From: a virus
Length of the DNA stretch: 64,000 nucleotides
Reading direction: 5' to 3' (one strand)
IMG/VR virus record: IMGVR_UViG_3300036770_004060
Location: 1,120-65,119 of that record
Made by a program: the position numbers and the translations under genes. Of the stretch, positions 857 through 44,926 are shown in pieces (the first letter of the stretch is position 1; every line of letters begins with the position of its first letter). The notes beneath the pieces were generated by a model, which saw nothing but the letters and a program-made list of their open reading frames with translations, ran no database searches and was not told the origin of the DNA.

Positions 857-3800
857 TCTCAATGTCTAGTTTTTCCTTGTCGTTTCCATACTTATTAAGT
901 ATCTTTCCTTTAGCGTATTCAGTTGAAATTTCTTGTAAATATTTCATATCCTTTTCTAAAACCTCTCTAGTCTTAATTGAGTTTAGATATTCGTAGTTTT
1001 CTAAAACAAGTTTGTTATAATATTCTTCTTGAATCTTTTGAGCCTCATCTTGAATACTATTATCCTTAGAGAATACTTTTAGTTTTAAATCGGGCGCACC
1101 ATCTATCTTTATGGTATAAATAAATCCTTTTTCAGAATCCTCACGCATCTCACTAAAATATCTTTTGCTTATATTAAGACCTCTATCAAACTTATACAAC
1201 AATCCAACTGTTTTAAGTTTTTCTGAACGTTTTTCTCCTATATCAAAAGTCTCTTTAAGGAATTTAGAGTAGTTGGTTTCTTTAGGATATATATTTCCAA
1301 ATACATCTGTTTTATTCTTGTCAATTATTCCATCAAGTCCATAGAAGTTTTTAGCAAATCCTTTTACTAATGAATAGTCTCCCTGAGTATCTTTTTCGGG
1401 TTTATCGTACGCCGATTCAATAGCAACGAATATGTCTTGAAGAATAGCAGGGGCAAGTATAGGTTTAGTCTTATCTCTTAACACACCAGTTCCAACAGAA
1501 GCCCATTTTATTAATGGGTTATCGTCGGGTGCTTGGTTGTAATCCCTAATCATTCTACTTAAAGATGTAAGGCTATTATCAGTAAACACTCTTAAATTGT
1601 TCCCTAGTGCTTTTACAAATCCTTTAGTATTTGGAGCAGATGAAAAATTTTCCATTCTTCTTTCTCCCATTTCTTCATGCAGGTAGTCCGTAAATCCTGT
1701 AATATTTGCAAGTACAGACTGAATAGATGGAGATAACTCAAAATTTATATAATTATCAAATTTGCCGTCTTTGTCTTTTGTAAATGATATTGATAGTGGT
1801 TGGTAGTTTTCGTGAGCTTTTTCGTTTTCTTTAAAATTAACACCAAAACCTCTAATGTCTAGTGGTCTATCTTTTCTTAATTTATATTTCTTTTCTTTAT
1901 CATCCCATTCCATCATGAGCATAAGTCCTGCAAGTGCTAACCCTGTAACAACTAAGTTAGAGGTAAGTCGTTGTTTTGCAAGAAGCGGATTAGCAATTTG
2001 TTTTCCTTTTATATCTCTAATAAACTCTCCAGATACAGGGTCATATCCTATTCCATAATAAGCATCAATTGCTCCAAGTATAGGCATTCCAGTTTTAGAC
2101 TTATTAAAGATGTTTACAGAAAGCCTAAGGAACATAAAAGTTAAGTTAAATAGTAGCTTACTAGACATTACAAAAGCATTGTCATTTTCATTTATTGCAG
2201 TAGTTTTTTGAAGTCTATCTAAGCCATATCCTAAAACCCCATCAGATTTTGCTATCAAGGAAACGTCTTTTGCTAACTGTACACCATGCTCAAAATGAGT
2301 TCCTAATTCATTTTCTTGCAATTCTTGAACTCTAGTTGACAGATATGTTTCTTTAGCGTTAAATCTACTTCCTGTAATGCCTAGCTCATCCCTAATTAAC
2401 TCAACAACTTTATTTTCTTTTTCAGCATCAGAGTATTCAGGGTAATTATAGGTAACAAATTCTTTTATTCTATCTTCTATTTGTTTAAAGTCTTCTTCCG
2501 CTATTTTTCTAAACTCATCATTTAATAGGTAAGCAGGTTCTTTTCCTGCTTTAACAGCTTCCGTAGTTCCAATTACTTGTCCTGCAATAACATTCATAAA
2601 CGTATCTAAAGCCCCAAGTGCATGGACACCTTTAAACGTTTGACCAAAAGTTTTGTACGCAACTTTACTATATTCTTTATTATTAAACGCTTCACCTAGA
2701 CCTGATAATAAAGCATTTTCAATAGGATTTTTCATTTGGTTTCCTCTTGAATCAACGGAAGATTGACCCTCACGAAGTCCAGATTCTCCGTAAAAATTAA
2801 ATCCTGTTTTTCTAGCTATTGCTGCTTTCCTAAATGCTGTTGGTATTGCTTTATACCCTGCATAAATTCCTTTAGCATAAGCGTTAACATCTCTTTTATA
2901 CGTTTTATCTTTTATATTAGATATAGACGGAACAAGATTATTCATTGCGTAAATAAGCGAACCCCATCCAGCCTCTCCATAACCACCAATACCAGCTTTA
3001 AAGAATGTTACTATGTTTGATAAAACAGCCGTGTACATTGTAGATTCTATTGTTCTTGCAACTTTATAAAAGTTCCATGGTTTAGCTGTTTCAAGAAGCG
3101 TGTTAATCTGCATTTGAAGCCTTTGTATTTGATTCTTCTTATAGATGTTCAACACTTTAGGTTTCCCATTAGTAGTTTCTATTTCTTTAGACAAATCCTC
3201 CTCCAGTTTAAACATCTGCCAAGAAATACTATCTATTTTTTTACGAATATCTGATGGTATGTTTCTAAAACCAAAACGCTTTTCAAAAGCACGGGTAAAC
3301 TCATTGGCATCTGTTATACCGCCAAGTTTAATCATATTCATAATCTTGTTTCTTTCACGTCTATTATTTGATTCGTCTATACGTTTTTGTAATTCTAAAG
3401 ATTCTTCTTCACTTATAGTTCCTCTTATTTTCTTTTCTTTTAAGGATTCGGTTGTTAATCTTCCATCTTGTTTCTTAATAGCATCAATTATTTTTAGTTG
3501 CTCTTTAGCTACAAGTTTTTCTATGCTTTCATTAATTTTATCCTCATATTCTTTAGCTATATCTTCTGCCATTTCTCTAGGAATATTCGTTTTACTGATT
3601 ATGGCATCTACAAGCGTTCTAGTATATTGACTTCTACCCATATAGTGGTCTTTAACAGCTTTTTTTATAGCCTCTGTGGTAATTATCCTCTCTTTGTCGA
3701 TAGCTTTCTGTAAAACCTCTATTTCATCAGATACCTTTTTGACCCTTTCGTTTAATTTTGGTGTATATTCTCCAACACCTTTTCTTAATCCCTCAAGTAT

Positions 3801-6800
3801 TTTTTTAAGGTTTTGTATTTTTTCGAGTTCGGCTATTCTTGCTTTGACCTCTTTTAGTTCAGTAGAATCCTCTGTTCTATTTTGAGTTCTTTTGTTTCTT
3901 TGTTTACCTTTTTCCAAATCAGCTAAGATAGATTTATACTTAGCAAGTCTTTCTTTTTGACTTTTAGCTTTGTCTAAATCAGATTGATATATAGCTTCAA
4001 ATTCAGGGTTTTCTCTAGCGATAGCAAGTATATTGTCTCTGTTTAAGGGATTGCCATCAACTAAATTTTTGTAAATTTCTTCTACAATCTGCATAGCATT
4101 TAAAACTCCAAGTTGAACGTGATAAGCAACTAAATAACCTACATTCTCAATGATTCTTGTAGGAAATCCATTAGCAGACAACTCGCCACTTCCTCCTTTC
4201 TTAAATTCTTCTTTTAGCCTTTTATATGTTTCTTCTATTTTTATTTTTAAATCTGCTATTCTTGCTTCTCTTTGAGCATTTGTTTCTTTAGGCTTTTTAG
4301 GATATTTCTTATTTGAAACTTTTTTAATTGCCTCATCAATAACTTCATCTGTGAATGCTTCATTAACTAAACTACCCAAAGCATTCAACACTCCATATCT
4401 TCCGCTATTAATATGTTCCTGTATTCTTTCTCTAATTTTTCTATTAGGGTCAAATCCGTAAACTTTCTCCATCGAAAATACAGTAGGATATTTCTGATAA
4501 ACTTTATTTAGGTAGGAATTTATTTGTCCCTCCTGTGTTCTTTCAAGTGAAACTTCTGCCAAGAAACCCATTGCACTTTCAAGTTCTGTTTCCGCAATTT
4601 GTAAAAGTTCATTATCATTTGTTCTAATTGCCTTATCTTTTAAAACCATGGCATCATTTGTTATTCTTGCTGAACCCTCCATAATAACAGCAGTCTTAAT
4701 ATCTCTACTAACTTCGCTTGTTTGGGCAGACCTAACATATAATATAGCCTCTAATGGCGTTCTTAGTGTAAGGAACTCGTCTATTTTTTTAGAAAACTCT
4801 TCTTGATTTTGGACAGTATAAGTACCCATATCCTTAATCTTCTTAGCCATTGCTTCGTCCTGCATTTCGGATGCTCTAAACGCTGCTGAACTATATTTTT
4901 TACCATCTTCTAGTGCTTTTTCTGCTTCACCCTTTTTAGACATATTTTCAGGTACTATTCTAGGTGGAATATTCTGTACAGGTTCTGTTTGTTTTTCAGC
5001 TTTAGGGGTTTCCATTGTTGTACCCTCACTAACTGGATTAGATTCTTCTACTAATTGCTCTACAGGCTCATCACTAACAACATCTTCTTGGCTTGGTAGG
5101 TTAGCTAAAACTTGTTTCTCAATATTTTCTTTACTAGAATCAGACAAACTATTATAAAATTCATTCGTCTTTAAATATTTTTTTACAGCACCAACTATAT
5201 CACCTGTTTTTTCTACCATGTCGGCAACCTTTTCAACTAAATCATTCCAATCAATACCAAATTTCACAAATTCGATTTCTTCTCCCGTTAAAGGATTAAT
5301 CATTTTTGGTTTATCTGTTTTTAATTTACGTATATTATTAGCAAATTTATCAAATACATTTGGAGCGGTTTCATTTACCTGTTCTTGTGCTTCCAAAATT
5401 CCACTTGTCGAAGCCTCCTCTGTGCTTCCTGCTTGGATAGGTTCTCCTTTGATAGTCTTTTCCCCTCCTTGCTCACCACTTGATATCCCTGTTTGGTTTT
5501 CTTTATCATATTCTTCTTGTTTTAAATTTTGCTCATTTTTTAAAATAAGAGGTTCGCTTATTTTAATTTTACCCTCTTTTTTAAAATAAGATTCTACATA
5601 AGAAGTTACTTTTTCAGATGGATTCTGCATTATCATATCCGATAATTCTTTTTTATCCATTTTAAGAACATCTTCTTCCGTATAAACTTTATTATTTTGG
5701 TCTATATAAGCTGTATCTAAATCTTCATTTAATAAAATTTCAGGACTTGCCTCTCCACTTCTTAAATTATTATCTTCTACTTGTTTATTAGATAGTAATT
5801 CTTTTTCTAAATAAAAATCAAGTAACGAATTTGGAACTGTAACTTCAAATATATCATCTCCATTCTCATTTTTAGTAGGTTTAACCCTATCTTTAAAGTA
5901 TTCGGGTATTTCGGCTTCTGTTTCATATTCAAACGAAGAAACATCTCCATTATATACATCTTTTCTAAGTTGTTCTTTACTTGGCTCTTTTATGGTAGAT
6001 TCCTGTTCTGTTGTTCCTTTAATATTTACTTCTTTACCTAAAAATTGAGCAGTCTTTGGATTCATTCTTAAACCCTCTTGTTTAGGCATTTGAATAATCT
6101 TTGTATCTTCCTCTGGCGATACATCTTCAACAATAGGTTTAACTTCTTCTATCTTATCTTCTGATACTGTATCACTTACAGTTTCTTTTTCTTTTGATTC
6201 AGGAGGCGTTTCTTTAACAACTTCTTCTTTATCTAAATTATCTGATGCTTCTAAGTTATCAGCAACTTCTTTAGCTACTTCGTCTGCCTCAACGTTAGCT
6301 TCATCTACATCATTACGTACTTCTTCAACAATATCCTTTATCGTTTCTTTTTGTTTAGGCTCTAAATTATCGTAAGCATCTTGTGTTGATTGCGGAAGTG
6401 CCAGTCCAAATGCACCACCAAGAATAAACGAAGAAACAACAAGTTGCATAACATCGTCAATATCCTTATATCTAGTTGCTACTTCATCCCAAAAACCTCT
6501 AGTTCTTAGTTCATCATTATAAATTGATGTTAGTTCTTGTAAACTTTCTTCAATCACCTCACCACCCCCTCTAGCACCTACATTTTTAATCACCTGAACA
6601 GCTTTTGGTGTACTTTGACCAAAGATTGAAGCCGTAAGCCCTAATGCTTTTTTTGTTTTACCGTATAGCCCTATAATAGCTTTTGAACCAGTAAGTCCAA
6701 CAAAACCATTCGCAAACTTTAATTGCTTATTTGGGTCGTTAAAAAACATTCCAGCAACTTCAAATTGCGCCCCCTGTTTTACACCCTCTTTTATAAACCT

Positions 6801-21331: not shown

Positions 21332-21748
21332 ATGGAGTTAAAAAAATACATAGAAAGACAAAATACTTTAAAAGGTATAGCAAATAGTTATACTTATAGA
21401 TTTTTTAAAGACGGTAAAATTCAATTCCCAACTCTTCTCGGATTAAATAAAGAATACCATAATTTATTGAATGGTGAAAAAAACGAATATTTTACAAATG
21501 AAGAACATATATTTGTATGGGAAGAAATAGTAAGATTATTGGATTTAAAAACTGGAATAGTAGGTTCAATTTTTTCAGATGAAAACAATAAAATTAATAC
21601 GAGTGAGAGAATAGTAACTACAATACGAACAAATTCTACTGGAAAAAGACAAGAGTGTAGTTTGTTTTCTTACGGAAAGACTAATGAATACTTATTTGCA
21701 GATTTAGAATTAAGATACGATTTTATTGATGTTAAATTAGATATATGA
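21332..21748 (+). CDS. hypothetical protein (138 aa)
   Basis: Abuts neighbouring ORFs in an operon. Confidence 0.6.
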   Translation: MELKKYIERQNTLKGIANSYTYRFFKDGKIQFPTLLGLNKEYHNLLNGEKNEYFTNEEHIFVWEEIVRLLDLKTGIVGSIFSDENNKINTSERIVTTIRTNSTGKRQECSLFSYGKTNEYLFADLELRYDFIDVKLDI

Positions 21749-22386
21749 AAGAGATAAAACTTAAAAAAACTTATAAGGGAACTAGAATACTAATAGGCAA
21801 CAAAAAGAGAGAGTTACTTAATAAAATGATAGACGTTCTTTATTTTTATGGTTTTGAGGAAATAGAAATTCCTATTATACAACTTAAAGAAACTTTTGAG
21901 AATAAAGTTGGAAAAGAAAACAACAATCTAATGTTTAACTTTAAAGATAATGGTAACAGGGATATTGTTTTATCTCCTGAATATACTAGTGTTATTCAAC
22001 AATTGTCTAAAGAAACATACAAACAAGAAAAAAACGTTAAACTTTTTTATATTCAAGAATGTTTCAGAGGTGAGAAACCACAAAAAGGAAGATACAGACA
22101 GTTTACCCAACTTGGAGTAGAAATAATAAACCCCAATGATAGTATAAACAATAACACACTTGTTCAAATAGTAATAGAACTACTATCCACTTTACATGAT
22201 ATTAGTTTTGATTCGTTTAAGGTTAACTACGAGGTTAAGAGAGGGCTTGACTACTATAATGACGGAAAAGGATTTGAAGTTTTGTGTGAAGAACTAGGGT
22301 CTAGTAAACAAGTATGTGGTGGTGGGTTTTATAATGGAGGATGTGGATTCTCTCTAGGGATTGATAGGTTAATGTTAATTAAGTGA
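21745..22386 (+). CDS. hisS: minimal histidyl-tRNA synthetase catalytic core (213 aa; no insertion domain, no anticodon-binding domain)
   Basis: KKTYKGTR start; motif 1 GFEEIEIPII; LSPEYT; motif 2 FYIQECFRGEKPQKGRYRQFTQLGVEI; His-binding loop VKRGLDYY; VCGGGFY; motif 3 GFSLGIDRL followed immediately by the stop. Confidence 0.9.
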   Translation: MKEIKLKKTYKGTRILIGNKKRELLNKMIDVLYFYGFEEIEIPIIQLKETFENKVGKENNNLMFNFKDNGNRDIVLSPEYTSVIQQLSKETYKQEKNVKLFYIQECFRGEKPQKGRYRQFTQLGVEIINPNDSINNNTLVQIVIELLSTLHDISFDSFKVNYEVKRGLDYYNDGKGFEVLCEELGSSKQVCGGGFYNGGCGFSLGIDRLMLIK

Positions 22387-22389
22387 AAT

Positions 22390-22701
22390 ATGAAAAAAAC
22401 AATTAATATAGTTGAAGTTCAAAGGCAGACAGGAAATACTTATTGGTTATTAAAGTCTGCAATTAGTGAACCAAAATGTATTCTAATATTTAAAAATAGA
22501 AGTATAGCCATCGATAATGAAAAAGTATTTATTAATATGGGAGGTGAATTATTTAACGACTTTCCTAAGTTCGTAGGTCTTGAAGAATATCGTCCTACAC
22601 GGAAGTATAAAGCACCAATTATGTTTGATAATAGTTGCTTCTCATCTAGTGATGGTGTTTTGTTTAAGACATCTGTAACTAATCAAGTATATAACATTTA
22701 A
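22390..22701 (+). CDS. small protein with degenerate P-loop-like motif (103 aa)
   Basis: RQTGNT (Walker A-like, with N instead of K) and PIMFDN (Walker B-like). Confidence 0.4.
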   Translation: MKKTINIVEVQRQTGNTYWLLKSAISEPKCILIFKNRSIAIDNEKVFINMGGELFNDFPKFVGLEEYRPTRKYKAPIMFDNSCFSSSDGVLFKTSVTNQVYNI

Positions 22702-22732: not shown

Positions 22733-23068
22733 ATGGAAGCACAAGGACAAGGTAAAATAATTAAAATTTTAGATACTATGGTTATATCTGATAAATTTAG
22801 TAAAAGAGAAGTAGTGATAAGAGTACCAGACCAAAACCCACAATATAGTGATGAGCTTATATTTGAGTTAATACAGGATAAATGCACCTATTTGGATAAC
22901 TTTAAAGTTGGAGATGATGTTATGTTTAAATTTAATATTAAAGGTAAAATTCATAAAGATAAATGGTATAATTCATTAAGAATATGGAATATATCTAAAG
23001 TTGGTGGTAATCAACCTAAAGTTATTAGTCCATCGTCAGAATTTGATGGGTTTGATGAACCATATTAA
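22733..23068 (+). CDS. DUF3127 family OB-fold ssDNA-binding-like protein
   Basis: GKIIKI...FSKREVVI...QY...FEL.QDK...LD....GD.V...FNIKG....KWYNSL.IW.I and an acidic tail ending FDEPY. Confidence 0.8.
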   Translation: MEAQGQGKIIKILDTMVISDKFSKREVVIRVPDQNPQYSDELIFELIQDKCTYLDNFKVGDDVMFKFNIKGKIHKDKWYNSLRIWNISKVGGNQPKVISPSSEFDGFDEPY

Positions 23069-23786: not shown

Positions 23787-24329
23787 ATGAAAAAAGTAGA
23801 ACAAGTTAATAGACCTCTTAAACTAGGAGAAAAATACTTAGTTCCGTGTCTTGTTAGTTACCATTTTCACGAAGAAAATATTGATGAAGAAACTTTGTGG
23901 CTAGATTTAGAACCTTATACATTAAATAGTGTATATAAAAATACAATTTCAATTACGCCAATAATAAATCATCCACATTCAGACATAGAAAACGGACAAA
24001 AAGAAATTCACTACCACAAAGACACTAGATTTATAGATAAAAGAAAACCAAATTATAAATCATTATATCAGTTTTCTCAACTACCAAGAGGAGAAGTTGG
24101 CAAACACGGAAGAATAGAGTACCTTGAACTTCCAGTTGTTAGTGAGTTATTTGATGAAATAACACCAGTAGAATTAATTAAAAACAGCAAATTGAAACAC
24201 AAATGTATTCATAATGGTAAATGTCCTCATCGTGGTTTTAAGATGAATCAGGTTAGTCCTATAGACGGAATACTTACTTGTCCTTTACATGGGCTCAAAT
24301 TTAACTATAAAACTAAACAGATGATATGA
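23787..24329 (+). CDS. Rieske [2Fe-2S]-motif protein with His-rich N-terminal domain (180 aa)
   Basis: CPH-x16-CPLH (CPHRG...CPLHGLKFN) matches the Rieske ligand pattern; upstream HPHSD...HYHKDTRF. Confidence 0.75.
   Translation: MKKVEQVNRPLKLGEKYLVPCLVSYHFHEENIDEETLWLDLEPYTLNSVYKNTISITPIINHPHSDIENGQKEIHYHKDTRFIDKRKPNYKSLYQFSQLPRGEVGKHGRIEYLELPVVSELFDEITPVELIKNSKLKHKCIHNGKCPHRGFKMNQVSPIDGILTCPLHGLKFNYKTKQMI

Positions 24330-43516: not shown

Positions 43517-44926
<1,410 letters not shown>

Follow-up and report, generated by a model that had tools for sequence, protein, structure and literature searches.

A phage-encoded protein family corresponding to the catalytic core of histidyl-tRNA synthetase

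Can a histidyl-tRNA synthetase (HisRS) consist of its catalytic core alone? The question is raised by a gene in a 64,000-nucleotide (nt) stretch of viral DNA, positions 1,120 to 65,119 of IMG/VR record IMGVR_UViG_3300036770_004060; the whole stretch is termed the window, and positions are counted from its first letter. The phage genome (record G000) is complete at 67,768 bp, with direct terminal repeats and a CheckV completeness of 100%. An initial annotation of the window, made from the letters alone, described a 213-amino-acid (aa) open reading frame (ORF) at 21745-22386 as a naturally minimised HisRS and proposed that it could be active without reading the anticodon. We term its product mini-HisRS, and followed up the proposal computationally.

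Domain content of mini-HisRS

The ORF is intact, running on the plus strand from an ATG start to a TGA stop in a window of 31% G+C that reads normally under genetic code 11. The Pfam domain model tRNA-synt_His matched at 2e-21, its 77 bits passing the 25-bit cut-off, and HGTP_anticodon did not match; these were the two profiles that the initial annotation had wanted searched. The NCBIfam model hisS (TIGR00442) matched in two stretches at 7.8e-44, with a score of 150.3 bits that fell below the equivalog cut-off of 286.75 because half of the model is unmatched. The hisZ model (TIGR00443) scored lower (2e-25, 89.5 bits) and its cut-off of 271.65 was not reached either. HisRS chains of the Protein Data Bank (PDB) matched the sequence at E-values down to 2.2e-21. 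In alignments with the S. aureus and E. coli enzymes (1QE0, 1HTT), residues 19-142 correspond to ~17-147 and residues 157-210 to ~249-314; the HisRS residues between these two blocks, and those past motif 3, are absent from mini-HisRS.

Every motif quoted in the initial annotation (motif 1, PEYT, motif 2, RGLDYY and motif 3) was located. All three class II motifs are present, including arginines R108, R116 and R208, as are the histidine-specific elements LSPEYT, HisA RGLDYY and HisB GGGFYNG. Their positions, with conservation given as counts among 48 diverse family members, are:

21745-22386, plus strand: mini-HisRS gene (protein P0001), class II catalytic core only; ORF, hisS match at 7.8e-44, AlphaFold2 model with pLDDT 93.4 and Z 23.6
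21856-21885, plus strand: motif 1 region, aa 38-47, with P43 (45/48); predicted dimer interface, from conservation and the homodimer model
21970-21987, plus strand: LSPEYT, aa 76-81, histidine alpha-amino binding loop (E. coli E83/T85); E79 48/48, T81 45/48
22063-22104, plus strand: motif 2 and its loop FRGEKPQKGRYRQF, aa 107-120, ATP and tRNA acceptor-end contacts, from the E. coli HisRS alignment with roles per PMC4357726
22132-22224, plus strand: short helix-plus-strand linker, aa 130-160, at the site of the insertion domain; helix 136-147 and strand 158-165 in the model
22240-22257, plus strand: HisA RGLDYY, aa 166-171 (E. coli R259, Y263, Y264); R166 44/48, Y171 45/48
22318-22371, plus strand: HisB-like GGGFYNG, aa 192-198, fused to motif 3 GCGFSLGIDRL, aa 199-209, from the alignment; G193 and G201 48/48

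Motif 3 ends four residues short of the stop. The claim that all key residues are kept held for the catalytic set and failed at two HisB positions, where R287 and D289 of E. coli are replaced by F and N; both positions vary across the family. The equivalent of E. coli R116 is a lysine, K111. The spacer between motif 2 and RGLDYY is short, as described, but measures 45 aa (121-165) rather than about 35, or ~36 when counted from the end of the motif 2 strand.

The missing domains were sought nearby and genome-wide. HGTP_anticodon (PF03129) had no match anywhere in the complete 67.8-kb genome. Profiles of the insertion and anticodon-binding domains, compared with every ORF and every open frame of at least 45 aa between 21000 and 23500, gave hhalign probabilities of at most 2.4%, so these domains are not hidden as frameshifted neighbours, a possibility that the initial annotation had raised against its own proposal. 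The adjoining ORFs are:

21332-21748, plus strand: upstream ORF of 138 aa with no recognisable domain; its stop overlaps the mini-HisRS start as ATGA
22390-22701, plus strand: downstream ORF of 103 aa, in the same frame and beginning 3 nt past the mini-HisRS stop; not an anticodon-binding domain (hhalign 0.1% against the HisRS C-terminal domain profile)

The tight ATGA overlap noted earlier is real, and the upstream ORF and mini-HisRS appear to form one transcription unit. Read-through of the TGA into the downstream ORF was rejected: the longest ORFs of the window become no longer under code 4 or 15, the downstream protein is unlike an anticodon-binding domain, and homologues stop at the same point and are followed by unrelated, often overlapping genes.

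Predicted fold and dimer

An AlphaFold2 model built on an 80-sequence alignment reached a predicted local distance difference test score (pLDDT) of 93.4 and a predicted template modelling score (pTM) of 0.90; a single-sequence run (pLDDT 36.7) was discarded. The top Foldseek matches of the model were the E. coli HisRS structures 2EL9, 1KMM and 1KMN, at query-normalised TM-scores (TMq) of 0.85-0.87. The superposition on HisRS that the initial annotation had called for gave a confident core match: VIA-align returned Z 23.6-24.0 and a root-mean-square deviation of 1.8-1.9 A over 205 of the 213 residues, to residues 4-317 of the E. coli enzyme and 4-321 of that of A. baumannii, and the T. thermophilus HisRS-tRNA complex 4rdx followed at Z 23.4. 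HisZ chains matched at Z 20-22 with 16-17% identity, against 30-35% for HisRS. Since E. coli residues 4-317 are matched, mini-HisRS equals the E. coli catalytic domain known as Ncat minus its insertion domain.

Multiple alignment with full-length HisRS placed three deletions. The first removes ~26 plus 66-83 residues after positions 152-154, the second, between GGGxY and motif 3, takes out 9-11 residues past position 198, and the third takes away the anticodon-binding domain, 97-105 residues past the C-terminus. What is left in the predicted structure is a minimal core, the motif 1-2-3 fold without insertion or anticodon-binding domains.

A two-copy prediction gave an ipSAE of 0.85, with the best of three controls at 0.00, and placed the homodimer interface on the N-terminal strand and motif 1, residues 38-47. 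In the calibration of the tool, which applies only approximately because our own alignment was used, the same mark was reached by 20 of 30 proteins whose structures were solved as same-chain pairs and by 1 of 23 solved as single chains. This supports, without proving, retention of the class II dimer interface.

Family size, conservation and selection

A word-indexed search at the 90% identity level found 2043 clusters matching mini-HisRS at E <=1e-5, of which the best 120 are all 204-239 aa in length, 59-67% identical, and on contigs reaching 649 kb. HMMER, run exhaustively over 1.84 billion representatives, gave 37 at E <=1e-30, mostly 190-250 aa. Among the 150 matches listed from that scan, 41 representatives are 190-250 aa, and most of these align in a single stretch over nearly the whole query at identities down to 29%; full-length HisRS (~400-530 aa) first appear at ~1e-29 and align in two stretches. 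Homologues in phage collections include proteins of 210 and 211 aa in the metagenomic megaphages LR756502 (642 kb) and LR745206 (635 kb), and a 196-aa protein, annotated 'histidyl-tRNA synthetase', in the cultured Sinorhizobium phage Phosso (469 kb). IMG/VR held 80 further loci on contigs of 4 kb to 676 kb, several of them ~60-70 kb like the phage studied here.

Residues of the histidine and ATP sites are nearly invariant among the 48 members (E. coli numbering in brackets): E79 (E83) in 48, T81 (T85) in 45, Y102 (Y107) in 47 and R108 (R113) in 46. The same is seen for catalytic positions R116 (R121) in 44, F120 in 47, Q122 (Q127) in 48, E126 (E131) in 47, R166 (R259) in 44, Y171 (Y264) in 45, Y196 (Y288) in 46 and R208 (R311) in 47, and for glycines G193 and G201, each in all 48. 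Positions of the motif 2 loop that correspond to acceptor-end contacts are held just as tightly: E/D110 in 46, K/R111 in 43, Q113 in 45, R116 in 44 and R118 in 43. One metagenomic member, P0121 (564 aa), carries a LAGLIDADG intein exactly between Y and T of the PEYT loop; inteins are typically found where their host proteins are most conserved.

The initial annotation had asked whether phage homologues share the truncation under purifying selection, and they do. Pairwise ratios of nonsynonymous to synonymous substitution rates (dN/dS) among viral homologues had a median of 0.13 (range 0.05-0.23, 133 pairs), and the boundaries are shared; neither the random truncation points nor the neutral drift that it had set against itself was found. 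Its view that the gene is no pseudogene is borne out by this dN/dS of ~0.13, the same truncation in relatives, near-invariant catalytic residues and the lack of domain remnants.

Phylogeny and cellular relatives

We built a quick maximum-likelihood tree of 92 rows over 214 core columns, unrooted, with support from the Shimodaira-Hasegawa-like approximate likelihood ratio test (SH-aLRT) only; its sample of full-length HisRS is biased toward the best matches of the query. A branch with 99% SH-aLRT has all 47 sampled full-length HisRS, archaeal and bacterial, on one side and all mini forms but one contig-end fragment on the other. With midpoint rooting, applied for drawing only, the mini forms fall into two groupings with no single clean split. 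One has 26 rows (SH-aLRT 94) and includes the window protein in a tight 10-row sub-clade (100) of uncultured phages; the nearest tree neighbour of that protein is on a contig binned with a Flavobacterium metagenome-assembled genome. In the other, of 18 rows (94), Phosso and further huge phages are joined by chromosomal genes for proteins of 154-247 aa from Pseudomonas, Azospirillum, Thalassospira, Chromobacterium, Pararhizobium and a myxobacterium. The tree argues against repeated recent truncation of host genes, and does not date the family.

The chromosomal genes are stand-alone paralogues, for example at L015:5019-5531 and L018:4959-5537 and in loci L011, L013, L023, L025 and L026; the Pseudomonas ones are from the fluorescens and syringae groups. 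The annotation pipeline PGAP labels the Pseudomonas proteins 'ATP phosphoribosyltransferase regulatory subunit', although the HisRS catalytic motifs are kept. No conserved neighbours were seen at the chromosomal loci examined. TrmK was considered as one and rejected; it adjoins the gene in P. salomonii, but not in P. amygdali or the other genera.

Genomic context of viral relatives

Among 63 viral loci, non-redundant at 90% protein identity, tRNA genes lie within 6 kb of mini-HisRS in 31. tRNA-His is found in 19 of these tRNA-bearing loci and lies within 1 kb in 12, more than any other type; the distance is <100 nt in L106, L155, L160 and L164 and 276 nt in Phosso. We inspected 21 tRNA-His genes (from L002, L003, L094, L102, L106, L107, L110, L131, L147, L155, L158, L160, L162, L164, L166 and L167). 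G is at position -1 in 20 of the 21, and C73 is present in most; together these are the identity elements of canonical HisRS. In 20 of the 21, +1 is also directly preceded by 'atg', with neighbouring proteins only 40-60% identical, which may be a conserved 5'-processing context.

The tRNA-His near the Phosso gene is likewise of the G-1/C73 type. Members of the Rhizobiales have a tRNA-His/HisRS pair lacking G-1, which in Caulobacter is orthogonal to the canonical pair (PMC3064791). A G-1/C73 tRNA-His together with a core enzyme of canonical type would fit a self-contained charging pair in Phosso. In five huge phage genomes (470-676 kb) the mini form is the sole tRNA-synt_His match. Two of these five keep HGTP_anticodon on another synthetase-sized ORF, which indicates that it is specifically the histidine enzyme that lacks its anticodon reader.

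Huge phages with mini-HisRS also carry, in their tRNA arrays, tRNAs of 84-91 nt with long, class II-like variable arms. Their anticodons (His GUG, Lys, Asn, Trp, Met) are those of normally short-armed tRNAs, and they often adjoin a normal isoacceptor of 73-76 nt; two long-arm tRNA-His genes lie 13-20 nt from mini-HisRS. Further ones occur in L094, L109, L115 and L157 in addition to:

L106, 5820-5909: long-arm tRNA
L164, 5895-5981: long-arm tRNA
L131, 5428-5515: long-arm tRNA

Other neighbours vary (PurA, GIY-YIG, RNA ligases, tRNAs), and no conserved neighbour was found in the viral flanks. In one megaphage lineage (L001, L002, L114, L127, L129) two different RNA_ligase (PF09414) genes bracket mini-HisRS, in L001 at 2343-3008 and 3890-4603 with a 90-aa ORF in between. 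L124 has one RNA_ligase ORF near the gene, and in L100 and L155 RtcB is found no more than 6 kb away. PurA, adenylosuccinate synthetase, is encoded 1-5 kb upstream in one group of huge-phage contigs (L004:3817-5088, L006:100-1371).

Proposed function

From the homology, fold, domain loss, conservation, selection and tRNA-array context of this family we infer that mini-HisRS is probably a genuine HisRS, minimised but working, dimeric and blind to the anticodon, that charges tRNA-His through its acceptor end. It would form a class II dimer in vivo through its N-terminus and motif 1, bind histidine and ATP with the same residues as the cellular enzyme, make His-AMP, and then move the histidine to tRNA-His, recognised by the acceptor end only (G-1, C73, CCA). 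That recognition would fall to the motif 2 loop, through the equivalents of E. coli E115, R116 (here K111), Q118, R121 and R123; the T. thermophilus enzyme contacts the acceptor end with Glu114, Arg115, Gln117, Arg120 and Arg122 (PMC4357726). The anticodon would go unread because tRNA-His identity does not require it. Loss of the insertion domain is plausible as well, since its tRNA contacts are not conserved and the mutations R197A and K209A have mild effects (PMC4357726). The E. coli Ncat fragment and the HisRS urzymes retain some activity (PMC3060492), a precedent showing the chemistry to be possible. In huge phages, mini-HisRS would serve the phage's own tRNA-His genes. In the 68-kb phage studied here it could supplement the charging of host tRNA-His during infection without relying on the host's HisRS.

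Several observations weigh against this reading. The T. thermophilus enzyme uses its insertion domain to help hold the acceptor stem (PMC4357726), and engineered truncations lose ~2000-fold (Ncat) to 4-9 million-fold (urzymes) in activity (PMC3060492), a cost that evolution has presumably made good in the natural family. As the tool itself warns for families with solved dimers, the dimer prediction may be a memory of known HisRS structures, and a few divergent members (P0126, P0195) have lost catalytic residues. In only 5 of the 31 tRNA-bearing loci is tRNA-His the tRNA closest to the gene, so the association is an enrichment within tRNA arrays and no strict pairing. The phage studied here has no tRNA gene, and no Rfam family reached its gathering score in it; only host tRNA-His could therefore be its substrate here, and this reading does not account for any advantage over the host's own HisRS.

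The initial annotation was right about a selected HisRS core without an anticodon reader, as far as comparative evidence reaches, its activity being a prediction; the more exotic roles that it offered gained little. One was histidine adenylation for an acceptor other than tRNA (a protein, carrier, nucleotide or small molecule) or for Ap4A-type signals. The ATP and histidine sites are intact, this phage lacks tRNA genes, and chromosomal paralogues occur in Pseudomonas and other Proteobacteria that already own a normal HisRS. Truncated synthetase paralogues with such roles are known: EpmA/PoxA acts on EF-P, GluQRS on tRNA-Asp queuosine, and AsnA and the amino acid:carrier-protein ligases are further cases, which we count in its favour. 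Nothing in the data points to a new acceptor, however. The tRNA-contact residues of the motif 2 loop are conserved as well as the catalytic ones, relatives sit in tRNA arrays beside tRNA-His, and no conserved acceptor- or transferase-like partner gene was found in viral or cellular contexts, all of which makes this unlikely. A specialist coupled to repair, which with phage RNA ligases would recharge tRNA-His cut by host anticodon nucleases, either re-ligated or still nicked, has only a slim chance of being correct. RtcB is encoded in the same phage and ligase genes lie by the homologue in the lineages described above (the RNA_ligase pair in L001, L002, L114, L127 and L129, one such gene in L124, RtcB in L100 and L155), but such proximity concerns ~8 of 86 loci, mostly of one lineage, and the RtcB gene here is 21 kb off in another gene block. 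Cellular HisRS moreover already depends little on the anticodon, so truncation would not be needed for this task.

Mini-HisRS might also do no catalysis and instead sense histidine, regulate in the manner of HisZ or, as a truncated subunit, pair with host HisRS via motif 1 to inhibit or re-tune it. The PGAP name of the proteobacterial branch, the match of HisZ structures to the model and the class II dimer interface predicted to be intact agree with this. We consider it quite unlikely, as the hisS score exceeds that of hisZ (150 against 89.5 bits, both under cut-off), identity is about twice as high to HisRS chains as to HisZ chains (30-35% against 16-17%), R108, R166 and R208, needless for a pure binder, are kept in 44-47 of 48 members, and hisG (PF01634) had no match in the complete phage genome and was not seen in the flanks of relatives. 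That the gene is a decaying, functionless fragment of a captured host hisS is hardly credible. It has half the normal length and misses the NCBIfam hisS cut-off; against decay stand the shared boundaries of the best 120 of 2043 clusters, the low dN/dS, the want of any remnant of the lost domains and the 99%-support branch that separates the family from all sampled full-length HisRS. Ordinary charging of tRNA-His is favoured because the acceptor-end loop residues are conserved and tRNA-His of the G-1/C73 type adjoins the gene in relatives.

A further-reaching version of tRNA-His charging is that mini-HisRS did not arise by recent truncation of host genes. Its class II cores would instead have stood alone for a long time as a lineage in its own right, across the well-supported branch from all sampled bacterial and archaeal full-length HisRS; they would be anticodon-blind yet fully competent in vivo, and would form self-contained pairs with phage tRNA-His, including the variants with long variable arms. 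We put this forward tentatively, as a rather unlikely proposal.

Relation to known systems

Cellular HisRS, of class IIa (1KMM/1KMN/2EL9, 4RDX), shares with mini-HisRS the catalytic fold, motifs 1-3, RGLDYY, the histidine and ATP residues, the acceptor-end residues of motif 2 and the predicted dimer interface, but has an insertion of ~100 aa, a loop of ~10 aa before motif 3 and an anticodon domain of ~100 aa, all three missing from mini-HisRS. HisZ is a HisRS paralogue that likewise lacks the anticodon-binding domain and has a similar core fold (Z 20-22). It is ~320-390 aa long, keeps the insertion region, works with HisG and does not aminoacylate. Mini-HisRS differs in its higher hisS score, its conserved catalytic arginines and the lack of hisG in its phage. 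EpmA/PoxA and GluQRS/YadB are also natural synthetase cores without anticodon domains, but for other amino acids, and in EpmA and GluQRS the acceptor has changed; the data on mini-HisRS favour an unchanged acceptor, tRNA-His. Naturally minimal GlyRS-like 'urzymes' identified in a genome database (PMC11602164) are natural cores too, of a different amino-acid family. These examples demonstrate that a synthetase core can work as an enzyme with no anticodon-binding domain.

The E. coli Ncat fragment (residues 1-320) and HisRS urzymes 1-4 are likewise cores without the anticodon domain, and the urzymes also lack the insertion (PMC3060492). The urzymes still activate histidine (PMC3060492); they are 119-145 aa with the HisA and HisB strands deleted, whereas mini-HisRS keeps these strands within its 213 aa. 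Ncat and the urzymes are engineered and severely crippled, while mini-HisRS is natural and under purifying selection, which implies that it is fit for its task. In huge phages, synthetase genes lie amid tRNA genes of the phage (Al-Shayeb et al. 2020, PMC7162821), as do genes for relatives of mini-HisRS. Those synthetases are host-related and were proposed to charge phage tRNA variants, with no mention of a histidyl or truncated form (PMC7162821). Unlike them, mini-HisRS also occurs in phages of ~60-70 kb without tRNAs.

We found no description of a conserved minimal or truncated phage HisRS in the literature, where subscription journals were poorly covered and absence is no proof. Automatic pipelines already label members 'histidyl-tRNA synthetase' or 'HisZ'; the latter, on the Pseudomonas relatives, we flag as a misannotation. 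PHROGs v4 has no family for mini-HisRS, which also misses the curated hisS and hisZ cut-offs. As a prior family, phrog_4806 ('histidyl tRNA synthetase', 190 positions) was rejected, since it matched the window protein weakly (1.4e-5) and none of 8 other members.

Minimal class II cores have so far been hand-built (Ncat, urzymes) and badly crippled; here are thousands of natural HisRS cores of ~200-220 residues kept by selection. If active, they would rank as the smallest tRNA-charging enzymes in nature. With them one could test directly how far recognition of tRNA-His depends on the acceptor end, and they would supply compact orthogonal HisRS/tRNA-His pairs for engineering. Phosso offers a cultured phage with mini-HisRS beside a canonical-type tRNA-His, a type reportedly lacking in members of its host order, Rhizobiales. 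Activity would also mean that tRNA-less phages of 60-70 kb invest in a single charging function, hinting at a histidine-specific bottleneck or a host attack. Should the old-lineage proposal be true, mini-HisRS would be the smallest natural enzyme known to sustain specific tRNA aminoacylation, and a present-day equivalent of the ancestral class II synthetase that has been proposed.

Other features of the phage

One gene elsewhere in the window bears on RNA ligation, and is a possible functional companion of mini-HisRS from its separate gene block 21 kb away:

43544-44926, plus strand: RtcB RNA ligase (phrog_1075 1.9e-94, Pfam RtcB 1.5e-34)

PADLOC found nothing for the mini-HisRS gene or its two neighbours, and a look for RNA-seq runs containing the region found none. 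A 1507-aa neighbour protein had no match in the phage collection, which indicates that close cultured relatives of the phage are absent from it. The rightward gene block of mini-HisRS also encodes a DUF3127 protein (22733-23068, 6e-22) and, at 23787-24329, one whose C-terminal part has a Rieske [2Fe-2S] motif (7e-6); no link was found between mini-HisRS and either gene.

A tRNA-like element was noted at 281-354 on the plus strand, with an acceptor-type stem of 7 bp, a canonical T arm GGGTTCGATTCCC, A at -1, and C, then CA, on the 3' side. It was confirmed as a look-alike of an acceptor stem and T arm but not as a tRNA: ARAGORN made no call even when relaxed, and the Rfam mascRNA match was sub-threshold at E 0.62. 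The element might be what is left of a tRNA, or a minimal substrate consisting of an acceptor arm.

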